NCBI GenBank assembly: GCA_052168195.1
Contig: JBQLZI010000001.1
Location: 1 to 46,708, forward strand
Reading direction: 5' to 3'
Source: Phycisphaerales bacterium
GTDB lineage: Bacteria > Planctomycetota > Phycisphaerae > Phycisphaerales > UBA1924
DNA: 46,708 bases
In this document: positions 5,523 through 42,305 of the stretch, one piece after another
Numbering within the stretch: the stretch's first letter is position 1
Layout of the letters: each line of letters begins with the position of its first letter
Made by a program: the position numbers and the translations under genes
Notes under the pieces: model-generated
Databases searched by the model: none
What the model was told of the DNA's origin: nothing
What the model saw: the letters and a program-made list of their open reading frames with translations, nothing else

Positions 5523-6921
<1,399 letters not shown>

Positions 6922-34647: not shown

Positions 34648-34918
34648 CGCCTCCTCGACCGAATCGGGCGCGCGGACACCGACCTGACGCGCTGCGCGCC
34701 GTTGGCACAACCCGGGCTGGCCTCGCGACTGTGCATGGACGCCGCGGCCTTGGGTTCTATTAGTGAATTGAACGGCCCGGAACAAAGGGCCCCAAGGCAA
34801 AGAATGTATACCAAATGAGGCGAGGCTGCAACAAGATTGCGAGGCAGCTAAGGCCATCCTGGAAACAACCGAGACAGGCAGTCAGACCCATGAAGGATCC
34901 GATTGCTCAGGTACCCTG

Positions 34919-34974
<56 letters not shown>

Positions 34975-35091
34975 GACATCGCGATCCAACGTCACTGTAT
35001 TACCTGCAAGTACGCACACCGCGCCGCCCAGCACATGACGCGAATAGCTCAGCAGCACCAGGCCGCCACAAGCGCGACAAGGCGCCGACTA

Positions 35092-35781
35092 TCAAGCACG
35101 CTCGCCATCACCGCCAAATGGACTTGATTCCGAGGATGCAAGAAAGCTGTTAATGGTAAACAACAACAAGACAACTCCGCAAAGCGTTTCCACAGTTGCA
35201 AGTGTACGCGACAGAACATGACTTGCCGATATAGAGCTGCCGATCGTGGTATAGCGACCGACGCTGAAATATACAGCCGACACGGCATCCCATCCCCCCA
35301 CCGGGAGCCCTGCATACATCACACTATCCGGAACCCCTACAGCGACGGGAAGCAGGACCGCCAGCGTGGCGAACTGTGCCACTGGCTCTAAGTATGCAGC
35401 CGACGCCATCGCGAAAGTGCGATGGTTGGGCCGATACGCACGCACTGCCACACTGATATGCGCCGACATGATTGCCGACATCAGCTCAAGCATGCGCAAG
35501 CCAATGATAACCATTGTCACAATAGATAGCACTCGGCTCGTTGCGATTACAGATGATGCCACAAGTGCCACAAGACCGATGAAAAGCCAACCAAGTATAT
35601 AGCAATCGTGAAGCGTGTGGTAGTTGAGCCACGGATGCTTAATATCTCTACCGAACCGACAGAATATCCAGCGGTGAAACGATACGCATCGAGATGCAGC
35701 AATATAACATTTTATAACACAAACCAGCGGAAGGACGGGGTTGCACGCAGGCCGTCTCAGTTGACGCGCAGGTCTAGCCAT
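35092..35781 (-). CDS. Ion-channel-like membrane protein (pore-helix-like YFSVGRYTTIGSS segment)
   Basis: The ATG at 35781 is preceded by GGGAGGAAAG. It has several TM helices. The segment AVYFSVGRYTTIGSS followed by a TM helix resembles the pore loop of two-TM cation channels. Lower-GC region. Confidence 0.5.
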   Translation of the reverse strand: MARPARQLRRPACNPVLPLVCVIKCYIAASRCVSFHRWIFCRFGRDIKHPWLNYHTLHDCYILGWLFIGLVALVASSVIATSRVLSIVTMVIIGLRMLELMSAIMSAHISVAVRAYRPNHRTFAMASAAYLEPVAQFATLAVLLPVAVGVPDSVMYAGLPVGGWDAVSAVYFSVGRYTTIGSSISASHVLSRTLATVETLCGVVLLLFTINSFLASSESSPFGGDGERA

Positions 35782-36770
35782 CTTTCCTCCCGAGACATGC
35801 AAAACAAGCGTTGCCATTCAGCCAAATCAAGCCACGGGTCCGCAACTACGGCCACTGTACGAGAGCCTCGCAAAGTCGCAACCTTCACATCAACACAGCG
35901 GACTTGGAGGATATCACCTGGCAGAAAAGCCCCGCGGAACGCATTAGACATTACAATAACATCGTGAGGCGCCTCGTCTACCTGCAAGGCCGGCGTTGCA
36001 TAATAAGAAGCATCAACGCTCTCCACACGGACTCGCCTGGCATACGGCGAGTCACCACACTCCTCCCATGCTAAACAATTCTGAAGAGGATGCGATACAC
36101 ATGCGCGATCATCGATGCACGGAAAGAGGTCTGCAGTCCCCGCGGACGTGCCAAGCCGGAAGGGGAACAGATATCCTGCATCATGCCGGAAAATCCCAGG
36201 ATTCGACAGTCGATTCATGGCAATGCGTCTCCTGCATGCCGCAGCGTCCGAAGGCCTCATTGATATAGCAATGTCGATATCTGCTGCCTGCGACGGATAT
36301 GTCAAATAGAGTCGACTGCCAATTAAGTACGTATCGTCCCGGCATTTACTTCCGATTGCCCAATCGCACGCGTCTTTAATAGGCGACTCGCCATCGCTCC
36401 ACGGATTCGCGTTTTGTAGCCTTATAGGCTGCCAAGACTCTATCACCGACGACGCCGCCGCGCAACATAGCCCGTGCAGACGAAGGAATTGACACCGAAT
36501 GCCCAGATCGCCCACCATTTCTCTAATTTCTCGCTCGGTTCGGTGAACCAACTCGCCGCCTACTTGTCGAGTTTTGATATCAATCATCAAGTGTCCATTG
36601 ATTTCGCGAGCCCCTTGCTCCCGCTCACGCACCGACTCCAGCAATGGCTTGACCCAGATACCACCAGGCATGGGGGGCATAAGATCGCTCCACTCTTCGA
36701 CAGCAAGAATTACGCCACGAGCGCTAGATTCGAGCAAATGGTATTGCGGGAGCATGTGTTGTACTTTCAT
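35757..36770 (-). CDS. Hypothetical protein with a possible Pol-beta-type nucleotidyltransferase motif
   Basis: 337 aa. IGSRLYLTYPSQAADIDIAI fits hG[GS]-x11-DxD. An acidic cluster (TADLFPCIDD) lies about 60 aa downstream. Confidence 0.5.
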   Translation of the reverse strand: MKVQHMLPQYHLLESSARGVILAVEEWSDLMPPMPGGIWVKPLLESVREREQGAREINGHLMIDIKTRQVGGELVHRTEREIREMVGDLGIRCQFLRLHGLCCAAASSVIESWQPIRLQNANPWSDGESPIKDACDWAIGSKCRDDTYLIGSRLYLTYPSQAADIDIAISMRPSDAAACRRRIAMNRLSNPGIFRHDAGYLFPFRLGTSAGTADLFPCIDDRACVSHPLQNCLAWEECGDSPYARRVRVESVDASYYATPALQVDEAPHDVIVMSNAFRGAFLPGDILQVRCVDVKVATLRGSRTVAVVADPWLDLAEWQRLFCMSREERWLDLRVN

Positions 36771-37908
36771 TGCTGACGATTAATGATCGCCACTTGAGAA
36801 ATGAGACAAACCGGACTTGCTCATCGTTCTCATTAAGCAAATTCGCGTAGAAGCACTTCGGATCCAGAACAGTCACCTTAGCACGGGACCATAATAATGC
36901 CTCCAGCCCGAGCAAACTGTTCCAAGTTACGAGTGACTTGGTCGATCTAATGGCTGCACTTGGATTTGATCTATCCACTTCAATAGTGCGGCCCCGCACG
37001 GCGATTGACGACGACCTTGGACTTTCTGGACTCAGAGGGTGAGGACGAAACACCACTCGCTTGTCAGCAAGATGCGGTAGGCGCCCAAAGACATAATCAA
37101 CGAAACCAAGACTGCCAGCAAATGGCGCTCTGCGTAGATTGTAATCGAAGCCGCATTGTCCAACGATGAGGCAGTCGATGCGATCCGGATCGGCCGAAGC
37201 TGCCGACACGGGTTCTTTCTCACAATATTTATCCCAGTACGACCCTTGCGCCGGTCGCGGCGAAGGGGCAGTCTCGATCATTCTGGCCTGAAACATACTC
37301 CAGTCGGCTCGAAATGAGCTACCCGAGGCGGTGAACGGCACTTCGAAATCTACGATATACGAATCTGGCAGTAGGCCGCGCTCAATGACATACAGCTTTC
37401 TACCATACTCACTTGCTACTGCGGCGGCGACATTCATATGCCAATGCCCTCGACCATACACCGCTACCGCAGCGTCCCGGTGCTCCTGAAGAAATACCGA
37501 CATTCTTTGTCGGAACTCACCTGAGGCAAGCAAAATAACTTGTTCGTACTCGAGATTATCTCCAACTGTAAAATTGTAACCTGCATGGTGGAGCGTACGA
37601 AACTCGTCGTCAAGCCACTGCCACGTTGGCCAAGGATCTGAATGACCCCAGTACTGCCTTACTAGTTCCAGATGCGAGCCCAAAAGCGGGGGCCGAAAAC
37701 TGGCTATAGTTGATTGACGGTTCTCAACACAGGGCAGGCAGTTCGGATGCGGGACAATCGAATATGAAAATATTGTCGCGTTTGGAAACAACGACGCAAA
37801 TGAATCCTGTTGGGTCAGAAACGTAGGCAAGACAGCGAGTACTTCGGCTTCGCGCCAAGCGCTTTGTAATACAGCGGGTAGATCGACTTCAGATTTGCTG
37901 TACTTCAT
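36724..37908 (-). CDS. Capsule-polysaccharide-biosynthesis-like (KpsS/KpsC-type) glycosyltransferase
   Basis: Internal ATG at 37908. VIERGLLPDSYIVD, IVGQCGFDYN, VVFRPHP and LVTWNSLLGLEALLWSRAKVTVL resemble the Capsule_synth family pattern from memory. Confidence 0.5.
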   Translation of the reverse strand: MKYSKSEVDLPAVLQSAWREAEVLAVLPTFLTQQDSFASLFPNATIFSYSIVPHPNCLPCVENRQSTIASFRPPLLGSHLELVRQYWGHSDPWPTWQWLDDEFRTLHHAGYNFTVGDNLEYEQVILLASGEFRQRMSVFLQEHRDAAVAVYGRGHWHMNVAAAVASEYGRKLYVIERGLLPDSYIVDFEVPFTASGSSFRADWSMFQARMIETAPSPRPAQGSYWDKYCEKEPVSAASADPDRIDCLIVGQCGFDYNLRRAPFAGSLGFVDYVFGRLPHLADKRVVFRPHPLSPESPRSSSIAVRGRTIEVDRSNPSAAIRSTKSLVTWNSLLGLEALLWSRAKVTVLDPKCFYANLLNENDEQVRFVSFLKWRSLIVSNESTTHAPAIPFARI

Positions 37909-38121
37909 GGCTCCCCACTTTAACCATTTGGTCAGAGGGTTGCAAACCAAGCCAGAGTCCCGTACTGGCAGCGAGGCTAAACTTGCTACACCCAAGCGTG
38001 ATGCAGCAACTGCCAGAAGGACATGTGGTGCCGTGATAATGCACGGTCACGCGACCTATGCGACAGAGCATCCCACCGAACATGTACGAATACTGGATTC
38101 TACAGCCCGAGCTCAGTGATC

Positions 38122-38232
38122 TCTCATTGCGTCCTGACGAGTACCCCAGATACGATGGATTGGCCCCCACTCACGCGAGTCTTCTGCCGTCTTGACCCTC
38201 TGAAGGCGGTTTCTGCCCCCCTCTGAAAGCCG
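38122..38232. repeat. Partial duplicate of the attR-proximal (P) arm
   Basis: About 110 bp are alignable to 42117-42239. The alignment includes a perfect 26-bp block (tcttgaccctctgaaggcggtttctg; 38190-38215 = 42198-42223) and one TTGCGTCCT motif (38127-38135). Confidence 0.65.
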
Positions 38233-38326
38233 GAAGTAGTCGACATCCTTGCGACTGTACCGTCTTAGTGCTAAGGGTGACAACCCACTTCACCCTCCCT
38301 CGTCGCTTGCTCAAAAGGGCTTACTG

Positions 38327-38695
38327 TCAACCGTGTACAACCATTGCACCGGCCTGTTCAGTACACCACTCGATCTCACCACCCCGGACAAAAAAGTGAC
38401 TGCGGCAACCCTTACGGCGCCAGACTGACGGATGCAGCGTCACTAGGCCGTCGGCACGTTCCTTAACAGTCCACCGCGGCCTTGATTCTGGGAGCAGGTT
38501 CATATGGATCGTGTCTCTGCAACCGCACGGGCAGAGCATCGCGGCGGCCCAGGGGTGCCCGTGATCTCCAGCTACGTACACACGATGGTCTCGGAGCCGA
38601 TCGGGAAAGTCCTCGACGCGCTCGACCTTGTACAGCTTCGACCGCCAAGGCCAGAGACGCTGGAGCCACCGTCCGATGATGGAGCGCCACTTCAC
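38327..38695 (-). CDS. DUF6527-like small Cys-rich (putative Zn-binding) protein
   Basis: 122 aa. GTG start overlapping the E1 stop (GTGA). The cluster CPCGC...H...C..H...C is present. Proteins of this kind are annotated as DUF6527 next to E1/E2/multiubiquitin genes, as I recall. Confidence 0.7.
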   Translation of the reverse strand: MKWRSIIGRWLQRLWPWRSKLYKVERVEDFPDRLRDHRVYVAGDHGHPWAAAMLCPCGCRDTIHMNLLPESRPRWTVKERADGLVTLHPSVWRRKGCRSHFFVRGGEIEWCTEQAGAMVVHG

Positions 38696-40095
38696 GCGGC
38701 CACCCCATTTTCTGATAGGGAAGGCATGTCCAGCAGCGGCGAGACATCACCACGACCGACGAGCCTTGAGAACGAGTGCGGTCTATCGGCGGGCTCCGGC
38801 TCGTAGTATGTATGCATCTGCACGAGACTATGGCGGATGATCGCGTACTCGCTGTTGTTCTCCAGCCGAAACGGGTGAAGCCGGGCGAGGAGTTCATTGA
38901 CGAGCATCGACGCGAGCTGGGTGTTGACGGAGACTACCGCCGGCTTGGCCTCATCAACGCCCTCGATGTATTTGGATTTGCGGAGGTCTTCGTAGGCCGC
39001 TGGGTCAGTGCGTTTCGTGGCTTCAGCACGGAGCCGTTCGGGCGTGTACACGCCCCGATCCAAGAGAGAAGCGCCGTCGGGCTGCACATAGTGCACCGCT
39101 CCGCACACCTCCTGAATCGCGCCACGGCCATCCGCGACGAGCTTCACCCCGACATCCAAGAAGGGCAGGTTGTAGAACGCGGCGGTCCGGTTCGCGACAT
39201 GCCGACCCTCGACGCTGTCGACGCACCCGATCAGGATGTCCGTCCCGGCCAGTGCACGAACCGCCTCGGGCGAGTCCGCGATGTTTCCCGCGTAGGTCTC
39301 GACAGCGGTGCCGATCCCCATCGAGCGGATGGCACGTGCCATGGCCTCGACCTTGAGCGTCTTCCGTGCGGCGTCCTCCGCGGTCGTGTTCGGGATGCGT
39401 GGCAGGTTCTCATCGCCGACGTGGTCCGGATCGATGAGCACCAGCCGCCCCACACCAAGGCGAGCAAGTTGCTCGATGACCGGTCCACCGGTGCCGGAAC
39501 ACCCGATGACGCCGACGGACAGCCGACCGAGCAGCGACATCGTCGCCTCTCCGAACAGCCTGACCTGACGGTCGAACGTCGGGTCGGAGACGAAGCTCTC
39601 TCCATCACCGTCGAAGAACAAGATGTCGTTCCCGGCGACGGCGATGCGCCGGAGCCGCTCGAAGCGGCCATCGGGGTGGATCGCTCGGCCGAACATAGGC
39701 CCGCCCGGGAGCATCACGACGCTGGCGTGCGCGTCGACGCCGTCGGTCCACCCGTGCACCGACCCGAAGAGATCCGCGTCCGCCTTGTCGTCCTTCTCGG
39801 AGAACCGTGCGAAGCCGCCGGGGTGGCAATGGAACTTGACCACGGCATGGTCGCGCTCGATGGCTCGCACGAGGAGCTCTTCGAGCCGGCTCGTTGACCA
39901 AGTGACATCGATGTCGGTGCGTCGGCACTCGTCGTACGGGATGTGCACGATGTCTTGGAGCGTAAGGACATGCCCGTGGTCGCCTCGGTGGCGACCACAG
40001 ACTCCCACCGCGACGGCTTCGAGTCCGTCGCCCGGGTACAGGTGATTCATAAGGGCCGCGTGCTGATTGCCCGTCATTCTCATTGAAGTAGTCAT
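38692..40095 (-). CDS. JAB/JAMM metalloprotease fused to a ThiF/E1-like adenylyltransferase
   Basis: HCHPGGFARFSEKD equals HxH-x7-S-xx-D, an intact JAMM motif, preceded by an E (GLEAVAV). VGVIGCSGTGGPVIEQLARLGVGRLVLIDPD is the ThiF Rossmann motif. Confidence 0.88.
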   Translation of the reverse strand: MTTSMRMTGNQHAALMNHLYPGDGLEAVAVGVCGRHRGDHGHVLTLQDIVHIPYDECRRTDIDVTWSTSRLEELLVRAIERDHAVVKFHCHPGGFARFSEKDDKADADLFGSVHGWTDGVDAHASVVMLPGGPMFGRAIHPDGRFERLRRIAVAGNDILFFDGDGESFVSDPTFDRQVRLFGEATMSLLGRLSVGVIGCSGTGGPVIEQLARLGVGRLVLIDPDHVGDENLPRIPNTTAEDAARKTLKVEAMARAIRSMGIGTAVETYAGNIADSPEAVRALAGTDILIGCVDSVEGRHVANRTAAFYNLPFLDVGVKLVADGRGAIQEVCGAVHYVQPDGASLLDRGVYTPERLRAEATKRTDPAAYEDLRKSKYIEGVDEAKPAVVSVNTQLASMLVNELLARLHPFRLENNSEYAIIRHSLVQMHTYYEPEPADRPHSFSRLVGRGDVSPLLDMPSLSENGVAA

Positions 40096-40502
40096 CAGTT
40101 CAAACTCCCGATCTCTCGCGCAAGTAGCGCGTCAGCAAGAACAACCTGGGTGGAGATGTCGTCTTCTCCGACCCTCCATGGATTCGCGGATGTGCGATGC
40201 CGGGACCACCGCTGGAAGGGCTCGCCCCGGATCGACTGGTTCTTGAGCGCGTTGATCGCCTTGCCGTCCCGGCGCGCCAGAGCCGGCTTGACGTAGAACA
40301 TGTCGAGCGGCGCATCGGGGTACCCCGGAGGGATCATCAGCGCGAGCGCGACTTGGTCGTGCGTATAGCCCTTGGGGACGGCATGGTCGTGGAGGATGAC
40401 CCAGCGGGTCTTCCCTTCAACAACCGTCTCCCAACGGTCGGAATGCGCGTCCAGAAACTCTCGGTCGGGCTCAGGCAGTTCAAATTCGCGTCGTAGCTGC
40501 AT
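40095..40502 (-). CDS. Prokaryotic E2/UBC-like protein (E2_E-type), containing no cysteine
   Basis: 135 aa. LALMIPPGYPDAPLDMFYVKP is a UBC-fold-like core. Start and stop overlap both neighbours. The sequence contains zero Cys. Confidence 0.72.
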   Translation of the reverse strand: MQLRREFELPEPDREFLDAHSDRWETVVEGKTRWVILHDHAVPKGYTHDQVALALMIPPGYPDAPLDMFYVKPALARRDGKAINALKNQSIRGEPFQRWSRHRTSANPWRVGEDDISTQVVLADALLAREIGSLN

Positions 40503-40818
40503 TGTCGCTCCCCTCCGTGGGATCGAGCGGGAGCGTCATGAAGCGCTCCACGCCCGGCTTGGTCAGGTCCACCTTGTCGCCGGGGCCGATCTTGCGAACC
40601 TCGCCGCCGCGCAGCTTCTGCGACAGCATGAACTCGCTCGGCGACTTGTCGACGAGGGCGAGGATCTGCGCGCCGGTGATGCACGGCTCGTCGACCACGA
40701 AACGCTCGCGGTCGATGCGGATGCGGTAGCGGTGCCCGGGCGGCACAGGGCGTCCCGCTTTGGCAAACTCTTCGATGTCGATAGTCTCGGTCACGGTCTG
40801 GCCGTTCGTCTGACTCAT
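40480..40818 (-). CDS. Multiubiquitin-domain (Ubl) protein
   Basis: The ATG at 40818 is preceded by AGGAGAAGG. YRIRIDRERFVVDEPCITGAQILALVDK...KIGPGDKVDLTKPGVERFMTLP matches the multiubiquitin beta-grasp pattern from memory. Confidence 0.7.
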   Translation of the reverse strand: MSQTNGQTVTETIDIEEFAKAGRPVPPGHRYRIRIDRERFVVDEPCITGAQILALVDKSPSEFMLSQKLRGGEVRKIGPGDKVDLTKPGVERFMTLPLDPTEGSDNAATTRI

Positions 40819-40873
40819 GGCCTTCTCCTTGCTGTTGAATCTCAACTCAACGGTGGGGGTAAAAAAAACAGGT

Positions 40874-41590
40874 TCAGAACAGGCGCGCTTGGCCTGTGGC
40901 GTAGTCACGGTGCTCGAAGAGCTGCTTGCCCTTCACGTACAGCAGGTCGAGTTGTTGGAGACGCACGACCATCGCCGAGATGGTCACGCCGAACTTGTCC
41001 TTGAGGTCGTAGAGCGCTGGCCAACTGGTGCGGTCGATCTTCTTGACCTCCTCAAGCACTAGGTTCTTGGGCATCGAGATCGCGGCGGCGTAGCGATTGA
41101 CGACGCGGGCTTCGTCCGGCTCATCCGCGCGCTGATCGATCTCCTTCAGCAGCGCCCGCCCTTCGGCGGACTCCTCCAGCTTCTTAATGACGGCAACGTC
41201 GCCGACACCCGAACTCCGGAACGCGAACGGCCCGTCGCCGTTCTCGTCAAAAAGCGCGGGGTGGCCGAATGTCGCCTTGTCTACGTACAGGTCCCAGTGG
41301 CCCATCTCGTGGCCCTTGGTCGAACGCTCAAGCCCGGGATGCTTGTCCATGTACTCGCGGCGGGCTTCGTTCAGGATGATGAGCTTCTTCTGCGGCATGA
41401 TGGCGCCGAGGATCAGTTCGCCGGGGAGTTCCTGCACCGTGTCCCAGAGGAAGTCGAGCCCGAGCACGACCTCGCCGAGGTAGTCGATCTGGATCGGAAG
41501 GGTAAGCGGCTTGCCCATCGCACGCTCCATCTCCAGCAGCCGGGTTTCGGCCAGTACCTCTATGTCTGCGTTGCGATAGAACCGTTTCAT
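40874..41590 (-). CDS. ImmA/IrrE-family zinc metallopeptidase
   Basis: HEMGHWDLY is an HEXXH motif. The ATG at 41590 overlaps the XRE stop (ATGA). NRYAAAISMP is a downstream family motif. Confidence 0.85.
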   Translation of the reverse strand: MKRFYRNADIEVLAETRLLEMERAMGKPLTLPIQIDYLGEVVLGLDFLWDTVQELPGELILGAIMPQKKLIILNEARREYMDKHPGLERSTKGHEMGHWDLYVDKATFGHPALFDENGDGPFAFRSSGVGDVAVIKKLEESAEGRALLKEIDQRADEPDEARVVNRYAAAISMPKNLVLEEVKKIDRTSWPALYDLKDKFGVTISAMVVRLQQLDLLYVKGKQLFEHRDYATGQARLF

Positions 41591-41967
41591 TCGTCGGTGA
41601 TCCTTCTCAGTTTGTCGATGAGCTTGTCCCACTGCTCGGGCGTGAGGTTGCGGTCGACCGCCGACCGGTAGAAGACGCGGGCCTTCTCATTCTGGAGTTG
41701 CTCGCTGACATCGGACGGCGCTTTGCCAGCGAGGGCGAGGAGCTCGTCGCTGTCCGCATCGAGCACCAGTGCAAGAACGAGAATGGCCTGCTGAGATGGC
41801 GGCGGCATCCTCTCGTTCTCGATCTTACTGAGATAGGTGAAGTCGAACCCACGACCGTCCTGCTCCTTCAACTTCGCCGCGACCTTGTCGGCGAGCTCTC
41901 GCTGGGACAGGTGCTTGCCGAGCCTGAGCTCCTTCAGCCGCGTCCCGAATGTCTTTTCCCGTGGCAT
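41587..41967 (-). CDS. XRE-family HTH transcriptional regulator
   Basis: FGTRLKELRLGKHLSQRELADKV...YLSKIENERMPP is a classic HTH_3 motif. Confidence 0.85.
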   Translation of the reverse strand: MPREKTFGTRLKELRLGKHLSQRELADKVAAKLKEQDGRGFDFTYLSKIENERMPPPSQQAILVLALVLDADSDELLALAGKAPSDVSEQLQNEKARVFYRSAVDRNLTPEQWDKLIDKLRRITDE

Positions 41968-42258
41968 TCGCTCCTACTGTACCGCCGTTGAGTTGAGAGT
42001 CAACGCTATGAAGTCAAGAACTTTCCCCCCTCTGCGAGTGCGGACACGGCGCGGGGCCTGGCGGACAGCAAGTGAAACATTCACCACCGGATTCTGCGAC
42101 CCCGAATCCGGTGCTCGCTCATTGCGTCCTCCGTTGCGTCCTGACCAGGGCCCAAGACGCAATGGGCTGGCCCCCCACTCACCCGGGCGATCCGTCTTCT
42201 TGACCCTCTGAAGGCGGTTTCTGAGTGTCTGAGGGCCGGTTTTGTTCGGTATCTTTTC

Positions 42259-42305
<47 letters not shown>

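Follow-up and report, generated by a model that had tools for sequence, protein, structure and literature searches.

A nucleotidyltransferase-like core with a channel-like and a β-Kdo-transferase-like partner in an imported three-gene cassette of a Phycisphaerales bacterium: a possible conflict module

[quoted passage not shown] By analogy with known systems, we put at about even the chance that this cassette is a horizontally acquired conflict module of three components, nucleotide-centred and with the channel as its effector, the likeliest kind being an abortive-infection-type system directed against phages or plasmids. We favour this reading because the effectors swap around one and the same NTase-like core, often on mobile or defence-rich DNA. 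An earlier note, made from the letters of the DNA alone, had wavered between a surface-modification cassette and a novel conflict module; the second option is the one favoured here, and the first has been weakened.

The NTase-like core and its changing partners

That the three genes belong together is indicated by their synteny elsewhere, which the earlier note had proposed as a test of the module: the trio recurs in at least nine metagenome loci, in two gene orders. The order of the window, GT, NTase-like protein, channel, is found in L029 and in L002, where the contig ends after the NTase-like gene; the order NTase-like protein, GT, channel is found in L001, L007, L008, L010 and L011/12. In L006 the GT gene is followed by the channel gene, and the contig is truncated upstream. 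Pairwise, the proteins of these loci are 24-39% identical to those of the window. Within 8 kb of the L010 module lie genes for a restriction enzyme of the XhoI type, a methylase/restriction protein resembling Eco57I, a Pua-like nuclease and GmrSD, and the L001 module abuts two integrases. Directly upstream of the latter module (1237-2301 of L001) there is also a gene whose 354-aa product has CxxC pairs in repetition, duplicated 'GIHVHA' segments and a faint match to TackOD1, and for which PADLOC has no match. The modules of L007 and L008 lie beside genes for a TadA-like deaminase, a GIY-YIG protein and a homing-endonuclease repeat protein; the deaminase, of the dCMP/cytidine-deaminase type, was considered as a defence partner and rejected, being judged the product of a TadA-like housekeeping gene.

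The NTase-like protein is also encoded in other company. At four independent loci with different backgrounds (L030/31, L035-40, L041 and L042; P0010, P0016, P0022 and P0020), a NADAR gene upstream overlaps or abuts the NTase-like gene, and a TIR gene converges on it head-on (for example, 8901-12105 of L035). The NTase-like proteins of these trios belong to the clade of the window protein and are about 30% identical to it. Their TIR partners, of 353-367 aa, carry a TIR domain of the CAP12/PycTIR type in the C-terminal half: they match PADLOC PDC-S35 (1e-26 to 2e-28), the TIR effectors of CBASS (cyclic-oligonucleotide-based antiphage signalling systems) and PycTIR, and a profile search of the PDB returns PycTIR and Cap12. 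The NADAR parts match PDC-M42C. The same TIR partners have an N-terminal domain of about 200 aa with GG..E.TGY and FGGA motifs. NADAR, NTase-like protein and TIR, so arranged, probably make up an independent defence system. More distant clades of the NTase-like family (L032 1890-5714; L034 2165-5564) are encoded with a small protein of 3-4 transmembrane (TM) helices and a radical SAM (S-adenosylmethionine) enzyme, together with an iron-containing alcohol dehydrogenase (Fe-ADH) or a GT2 protein; the radical SAM protein of L034 matches models of prokaryotic viperins (7e-17, over 220 of 257 positions). These clusters may represent additional variants within one family of systems and, since the distant clades adjoin radical SAM enzymes, one of them viperin-like, we take the partners of the core to be nucleotide-processing enzymes.

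The phylogeny of the core agrees with an exchange of partners. In a maximum-likelihood tree, the window protein and those of L002/L029 fall together with the NADAR/TIR-linked proteins in a clade with 100/99 support, and the loci of the order NTase-like protein, GT, channel form a separate clade (100/100). The context of GT plus channel requires at least two changes on the tree, being mixed with NADAR plus TIR inside the 100/99 clade. Among the loci on the tree we saw no GT combined with a TIR protein and no NADAR protein combined with a channel; with accessory and effector co-varying so strictly, the target of the accessory could equally be the effector or the effector's ligand. We take the alternative accessory enzymes all to act on bonds of nucleotides or of glycosyl-nucleotides. 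Swapping of effectors round a constant core is a signature of CBASS, Pycsar (pyrimidine cyclase system for antiphage resistance) and Thoeris, and signalling systems of CorA-type III CRISPR follow the pattern too. The suggestion of the earlier note that an NTase-like enzyme paired with a pore protein follows the nucleotide-signal/effector logic of CBASS or Pycsar therefore holds in part, in that the core is rewired to a CAP12/PycTIR-type TIR protein; but the core is not an enzyme of either system (see below), and the analogy is one of logic only. The GT, of which the earlier note remarked that it fits no known system, is the constant partner of the channel. Our search of the literature found no description of a defence system made up of NTase, K+ channel and glycosyltransferase, or of NADAR, NTase and TIR.

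The three proteins of the window

The core protein, gene 2 (35757-36770, minus strand; 337 aa, shortened to 332 aa if the ATG at 36755 is the start), has no match in Pfam, NCBIfam or PADLOC. Its family is very rare and known from metagenomes and metagenome-assembled genomes (MAGs) only: an exhaustive profile search of 1.84 billion proteins gave 43 representatives, of 250-356 aa apart from fragments, a word-indexed protein search found no homologue, and a search with a 37-sequence profile returned just three proteins. The NTase-like signature of the DNA polymerase β (Pol-β) type that had been noticed in this protein is borne out as a motif. G151-S152 is separated by 11 residues from D164-I-D166 (LIGS...DIDI, the latter at 164-167), as in the pattern hG[GS]/[DE]h[DE]h, and G151, D164 and D166 are the only residues invariant across the 37 aligned members, S152 and R279 being nearly so. 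Members of the window's clade also share a third acidic residue, D214 ('ADLFPC', xDlFP), which lines up with the Asp of the SMODS motif 'DVVPa'. Profile comparisons add weak matches to NTases. NTP_transf_2 is weakly matched by 7 of the 37 members (E 0.003 or weaker), and the family profile finds chains of kanamycin NTase and MNT in the PDB, again weakly (E 0.04-0.5). When the family was compared by hhalign with reference alignments of bona fide MNT and SMODS genes from related genomes, it matched MNT with P 4.4e-4 over the GS...DxD region, and SMODS with P 1.1e-3 over 91 columns that include all three acidic positions; by the same procedure, MNT against SMODS, used as a control, gave P 4.3e-3.

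The AlphaFold2 (AF2) model of gene 2, built from seven sequences, is poor (predicted local distance difference test, pLDDT, 59); the predicted order of its elements (helix, strand, GS, short helix, DxD strand, long helix, hairpin with D214) is that of a minimal NTase. Foldseek matches of this model to cold-shock/OB domains, to a 66-residue stretch of CdnD and to an RNA ligase all had E values of 0.15 or above and were not relied on. The protein is laid out as a β-rich N-terminal domain (residues 1 to about 115), the motif-bearing middle part and a β-barrel-like C-terminal half (about 232-310) with SNAFRG and DPW motifs. Gene 2 very probably has, to judge from its motifs and weak profile matches, a Pol-β-type core flanked by these β-rich and barrel-like parts; the fold as such was not confirmed by structure comparison. 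As far as sequence and model allow us to judge, it is neither a CD-NTase (cGAS/DncV-like nucleotidyltransferase) nor a Pycsar (class III) cyclase, and the module is not CBASS, because SMODS is matched neither by the window protein at E ≤ 1 nor by any of the 37 members at E ≤ 0.1, and because a helical C-terminal domain is missing: the C-terminal half is predicted to consist nearly entirely of β strands (E232-309, in the low-confidence model), and SNAFRG and DPW have no counterpart in CD-NTases. The PADLOC model 'Cyclase' is matched by a single member out of the 37 (0.032).

The presumed effector, gene 3 (35092-35781, minus strand; 229 aa if it starts at the ATG at 35781, 241 aa if it starts at 35817), narrowly passes the cut-off of Pfam Ion_trans_2 (23.5 bits against 22.5), a family that is matched by all six members of the gene 3 family (best 1.6e-7). 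The earlier note had singled out a segment like the pore loop of channels between TM helices, and this reading is sustained: YFSVGRYTTIGSS occupies residues 183-195 of the 241-aa form, between hydrophobic helices at 145-167 and 201-227 and inside the Ion_trans_2 match. Moreover, a profile of the family aligns in the PDB with the pore helix, filter and inner helix of LmK, KirBac3.1, K2P and Kv channels (1.6e-4 and weaker). In the numbering of the 241-aa form, a basic, cytoplasmic N-terminus is followed by TM helices at 74-92 and 99-121, the outer helix (145-167), the pore helix and filter (176-195) and the inner helix (201-227); hydropathy and charge are compatible with an N-in topology in which two extra helices precede an outer helix, a re-entrant P-loop and an inner helix, that is, with a pore-type architecture. 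The filter of the window protein reads TTIGSS, which does not conform to T-[VI]-G-[YF]-G, and that of relatives TTVGWGD, TTAGAGD or TTVGAEG; since the filter is variable in the family and degenerate in the window, strict K+ selectivity is unlikely. As a regulatory part of the protein the only candidate is its basic N-terminal region of about 60 residues, which is conserved throughout the family. The ATG at 35781 is directly preceded by GGAGGAAAG, a strong GGAGG ribosome-binding site, as had been noted for the last gene.

The third protein, gene 1 (36724-37908, minus strand; 394 aa), is a cytoplasmic, GT-B-like transferase that falls just short of the cut-off of Pfam Capsule_synth (E 7.7e-4; 19.4 bits against 20). 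An AF2 model built on eight homologues (pLDDT 80.6; predicted TM score, pTM, 0.83) matches WbbB (E 6.3e-9), KpsC (3e-7) and KrkA (2e-5) in a Foldseek search of the PDB, each with a probability of 1.0; the Foldseek TM score is no higher than 0.44, which is in line with expectation for proteins of two hinged domains. In that search the β-Kdo GTs come ahead of generic GT-B enzymes and UDP-GlcNAc 2-epimerases. Retaining β-Kdo GTs share an invariant QXXXD motif, the Asp of which forms a covalent adduct with Kdo, and an HP motif that also occurs in CMP-sialic-acid enzymes and whose His protonates the phosphate of CMP (PMC10148158). In gene 1 the first motif is Q251-C-G-F-D255, and G250, Q251, C252, F254 and D255 are invariant in eight homologues; the second, H290-P291 (in R-P-H290-P291-L), is invariant in a three-sequence alignment and aligns to R-A-H-P-G of WbbB. 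In the profile alignment with WbbB, RPHPLSPE corresponds to RAHPGSL and TWNSLLGLEA to TINSSVGLEA. Thus, the nucleophile motif Q251..D255 and H290-P291 are the candidate catalytic residues, and we infer that E176 is a candidate for the catalytic base. Because of the fold match, the invariant QXXXD and HP motifs and the segments aligned with WbbB, gene 1 is probably an active, although very divergent, retaining β-Kdo GT of the GT99/GT107 kind, which agrees with the guess of a KpsS/KpsC-type glycosyltransferase made from the sequence at the outset.

Residues 76-105 or thereabouts (L.aHLrL..iYWs...W.W.E.EF), among the most conserved segments of the gene 1 family, drew weak but recurrent matches to the SAM/PNT domain of ETV6. 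They are modelled inside the helical insert typical of β-Kdo GTs, and the match (6-8 bits per repeat, inflated by tandem fusion constructs) was rejected as due to chance. Relatives of gene 1 are few: a word-indexed protein search found two homologues only, and scans of 185,579 species genomes and of IMG/VR with short-peptide patterns found none, although divergent copies can escape such patterns.

The cassette and the island that carries it

The host MAG is of about 2.7 Mb and 68% GC (guanine plus cytosine). Against this background the three genes lie in a low-GC cassette (34861-38105, a feature without strand; GC 0.529), and the earlier description of three overlapping minus-strand genes in an AT-richer stretch was accurate in its coordinates, in its overlaps (47 nt between genes 1 and 2, 25 nt between genes 2 and 3) and in its composition. 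Over 35001-38000 the GC content is 0.52, whereas the left flank has 0.66-0.73 and the right flank 0.62-0.66, and GC at third codon positions is 0.49-0.53 in the three genes as against 0.79-0.90 in the neighbouring ones. Because of this drop and of the contrast in codon positions with the flanking genes, we regard the cassette as an accessory element of recent import and not as a local fluctuation in composition. The GC content of related loci elsewhere (0.45-0.56) is compatible with import from a donor of lower GC. Homologues of gene 2 start at the equivalent of M6, so the real start of the gene may be the ATG at 36755 and the actual overlap with gene 1 may be 32 nt instead of 47 nt. All three frames are full length relative to their homologues and all catalytic motifs are preserved in the window copies. 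Upstream of gene 1 the only match to a sigma-70-like promoter is weak (TTGTCA-18-TACAGT; 38254-38283, minus strand), and one such site, compared with 2.7 expected in shuffled sequence, is not above chance.

The cassette is part of a larger integrated element. An exact direct repeat of 47 bp (5553-5599 and 42259-42305), which corresponds to the 3' part of tRNA-Asp (gene 5523-5597), forms attachment-site (att) repeats that bound an integrative, mobilisable island of about 36.7 kb, extending from the integrase-side genes to a ubiquitin-like operon. Its cargo includes a TrwC relaxase, a type IV coupling protein (T4CP), a Fic protein and what we take to be an operon related to BREX (bacteriophage exclusion), together with a multiubiquitin operon, the domain content of which was confirmed here. 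The latter lies directly to the right of the cassette (38327-41967) as one minus-strand operon whose Pfam content, DUF6527, JAB plus ThiF (E1), Prok-E2_E, Multi_ubiq and a helix-turn-helix (HTH) protein, agrees with a Bub ubiquitin-like operon. A direct repeat of about 110 bp of the attR-proximal arm, about 80% identical between its copies (38106-38215 and 42101-42223), brackets this operon and adjoins the low-GC cassette at its right-hand boundary, which suggests that cargo accreted stepwise at the right end of the island. At the left compositional boundary there is a perfect (GA)25 microsatellite (34921-34970), 121 nt downstream of the gene 3 stop and outside all three genes. No convincing inverted or direct repeats were found that would mark the cassette itself as a transposable unit. 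Gene 1 is absent from 60 genomes of the genus, family and order of the host, and a DNA similarity search against plasmids gave no match for the cassette, the wider region matching only a heavy-metal ATPase.

Competing explanations and comparison with known systems

If the cassette is a conflict module, it could work as follows. The flanking β-rich, possibly OB-like (oligonucleotide/oligosaccharide-binding-like), domains of the NTase-like core would sense a cue from the invader, and the Pol-β-type site (G151/S152, D164, D166 and D214) would then make or transfer a nucleotide-derived product. The K+-channel-like effector, triggered via its conserved basic N-terminal region, would open a cation pore and cause the membrane potential to collapse. 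The β-Kdo-transferase-like enzyme would use a CMP-linked or similar glycosyl-phosphate donor, as expected from its intact QXXXD nucleophile and HP motif, and, as the obligatory accessory of the channel, would mature or destroy the signal or else restrain the effector. Every step of this scheme, that is, the fold and activity of the NTase, the direction of signalling, the gating of the channel and the defence phenotype, is inferred.

Several observations weigh against a conflict module of this kind. Clear defence islands surround only two of about six informative neighbourhoods (too small a sample for statistics), those of L041 and L042 being housekeeping-like and those of L007 and L008 being marked by the TadA-like deaminase, and PADLOC matches no model to the three window proteins or to two of the homologues in L010. 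We are aware of no signalling defence system that includes a glycosyltransferase, and the GT2, sulfotransferase-like and Fe-ADH genes near related loci would also suit the biosynthesis of glycans or small molecules. The fold of the core rests on motifs and weak profile similarity: Foldseek returned nothing at E ≤ 0.001 for the model with pLDDT 59, the third acidic column is occupied by C or F in the NTase-like proteins of clade B, and searches of PADLOC and NCBIfam with the 37 members gave scattered matches with E values of 0.002 and above (PDC-S09 at 0.002 in 3 of the 37), which we did not interpret. As for the effector, the channel lacks a recognisable ligand-binding domain, and the filter of the window protein is the most deviant of the family, possibly that of a decaying copy.

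A different chemistry, which we consider unlikely, would make the NTase-like family a new immune class whose output is a conjugate of a nucleotide with a glycosyl group or a metabolite, possibly cytidine-based and non-cyclic. The partners of the core (a CMP-sugar-type transferase, a NADAR ribosyl N-glycosidase and a radical SAM enzyme like viperin) would all work on bonds of this type, each accessory would be matched to its own effector (a K+-channel-type pore, a TIR NADase or a small TM protein), and the GT of the window would directly produce, alter or remove the ligand by which the pore is gated.

The main rival explanation, which rests on the known biology of the gene 1 family, is a cassette for the modification of surface or lipid glycoconjugates, comparable to serotype conversion, in which the GT adds a Kdo-type sugar, the NTase-fold protein is an activating or LicD-like phosphotransferase, the membrane protein serves as anchor, exporter or partner, and phage resistance results from masking of the receptor. 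The gene 1 product is a credible active enzyme of the β-Kdo GT kind, the known members of which all build capsule linkers or O-antigen caps, and a donor is plausibly available, as the host encodes a full-length CMP-sugar synthetase of the KdsB/NeuA type (the WaaA N-domain was not found in the host genome, which is 90% complete). Distant NTase-like relatives beside GT2, sulfotransferase-like and Fe-ADH genes, typical of glycan clusters, would also be accommodated, and surface-modifying cargo is common on mobile elements. However, genes for an exporter, a flippase, a polymerase or sugar synthesis are absent from all loci of the module, and the constant membrane partner is a homologue of the K+-channel pore and no glycan transporter. 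Moreover, the wiring of the same clade to NADAR and a PycTIR/Cap12-type TIR has no place in glycan synthesis, and the radical SAM partner in L034 is viperin-like, unlike sugar-modifying enzymes. Surface modification is thus a possible but not a likely function of the cassette.

The location on a mobile island and the tight overlaps of the genes would also suit a regulated-toxin or addiction module, akin to toxin-antitoxin (TA) systems, that stabilises the island without sensing an invader; the channel would be the toxin, silenced by nucleotidylation, as MNT does to HEPN toxins, or by glycosylation through gene 1. The resemblance of the core to MNT-type antitoxins in the profile comparison fits this, and both TIR and pore proteins serve as toxins in TA-like systems. 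Yet three components of 230-390 aa and large additional domains in the NTase-like protein are atypical of TA pairs, and L041 and L042 show that such modules are also found in surroundings that look chromosomal and non-mobile. We regard this explanation as improbable, while acknowledging that the line between it and abortive-infection defence is thin. Still less probable, in our judgement very much so, is ordinary physiology, in which a regulated cation channel and two modifying enzymes, serving for instance under ionic or osmotic stress, hitch-hike on the island, or else a decaying, non-functional import. The degenerate filter (TTIGSS, compared with TTVGWGD in relatives), the absence of a promoter above chance and the great rarity of the family speak in its favour, but the three intact frames with their catalytic motifs do not, and selection is implied by the conservation of the trio, at 30-40% identity, in both gene orders; nor is the wiring to TIR a housekeeping theme.

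Should the cassette indeed be a conflict module, it would bring a new core enzyme family that has no Pfam model and about 43 clusters worldwide, a new type of effector, a homologue of the K+-channel pore, and an unexpected accessory that resembles Kdo transferases acting through a covalent intermediate; the β-Kdo transferase scaffold would have been recruited beyond the synthesis of capsule and O-antigen. If the signal were a conjugate, bacterial immune signalling would gain its first enzyme of glycosyltransferase fold and its first K+-channel homologue. The occurrence of the same core with GT and channel, with NADAR and TIR, or with a viperin-like radical SAM enzyme and a TM protein offers a built-in comparison for the chemistry of the signal, and the module is small (2.8 kb) and intact. 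If, on the other hand, surface modification proved to be its function, the cassette would represent a new route by which a mobile island alters the envelope of its host.

Each of the three proteins has relatives among characterised families from which it departs in a particular way. Gene 1 shares the fold, the QXXXD and HP motifs and the NS.GLEA segment with WbbB (GT99), KpsC/KpsS (GT107) and KrkA, but differs from them in an identity of only about 15%, in a match to Capsule_synth that remains below the cut-off and in its surroundings, since capsule and O-antigen genes are absent nearby and its constant neighbours are the NTase-like protein and the channel. Gene 3 is built like prokaryotic K+ channels (LmK, KirBac and the KcsA-like pore), with an outer and an inner helix and, between them, a pore helix and a filter, to which it adds two N-terminal TM helices and a conserved basic segment; RCK, CNBD and Kir cytoplasmic domains are all absent from it. 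The core of gene 2 aligns with MNT of HEPN-MNT pairs in its GS...DxD part (the P of 4.4e-4 given above; E 0.32 for the MNT chain in the PDB profile search). MNT, however, is a single domain of about 100-130 aa with a HEPN RNase as its partner, whereas the core of gene 2 is embedded in a three-domain protein of 310-355 aa with other partners.

At the level of whole systems, the likeness to CBASS and Pycsar lies in a core of the nucleotidyltransferase type beside a death effector, in the interchangeability of that effector, which may be a membrane-disrupting protein or a TIR NADase, in the PycTIR/Cap12 type of the TIR protein in the sister module, and in the location on mobile or defence-rich DNA. 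In contrast to both, the core described here is no CD-NTase or class III cyclase, having a β-rich C-terminal half and an extra N-terminal β domain, and its third gene, likewise obligatory, is for a GT-like enzyme or a NADAR enzyme. We know of no K+-channel pore homologue that acts as an effector in CBASS or Pycsar, and none was found in the literature. In RexAB of phage lambda, an exclusion system borne by a mobile element, a small multi-TM ion channel depolarises the cell once its partner senses infection; this system has two components, without an NTase or a glycosyltransferase, and no sequence relationship to the trio of the window is expected. In type III-B CRISPR/CorA systems, an enzyme of the Palm/NTase type conjugates a nucleotide to a metabolite, giving SAM-AMP, the product activates an effector of an ion-channel family, and a dedicated enzyme degrades the signal. 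The cassette differs in that it shows no homology to CRISPR, Cas10 or CorA, its Ion_trans_2 channel and β-Kdo GT-like accessory being unrelated to the components of that system; in logic, and in logic only, type III-B CRISPR/CorA is the closest precedent for a trio made up of an NTase, an effector of an ion-channel family and a signal-processing enzyme.

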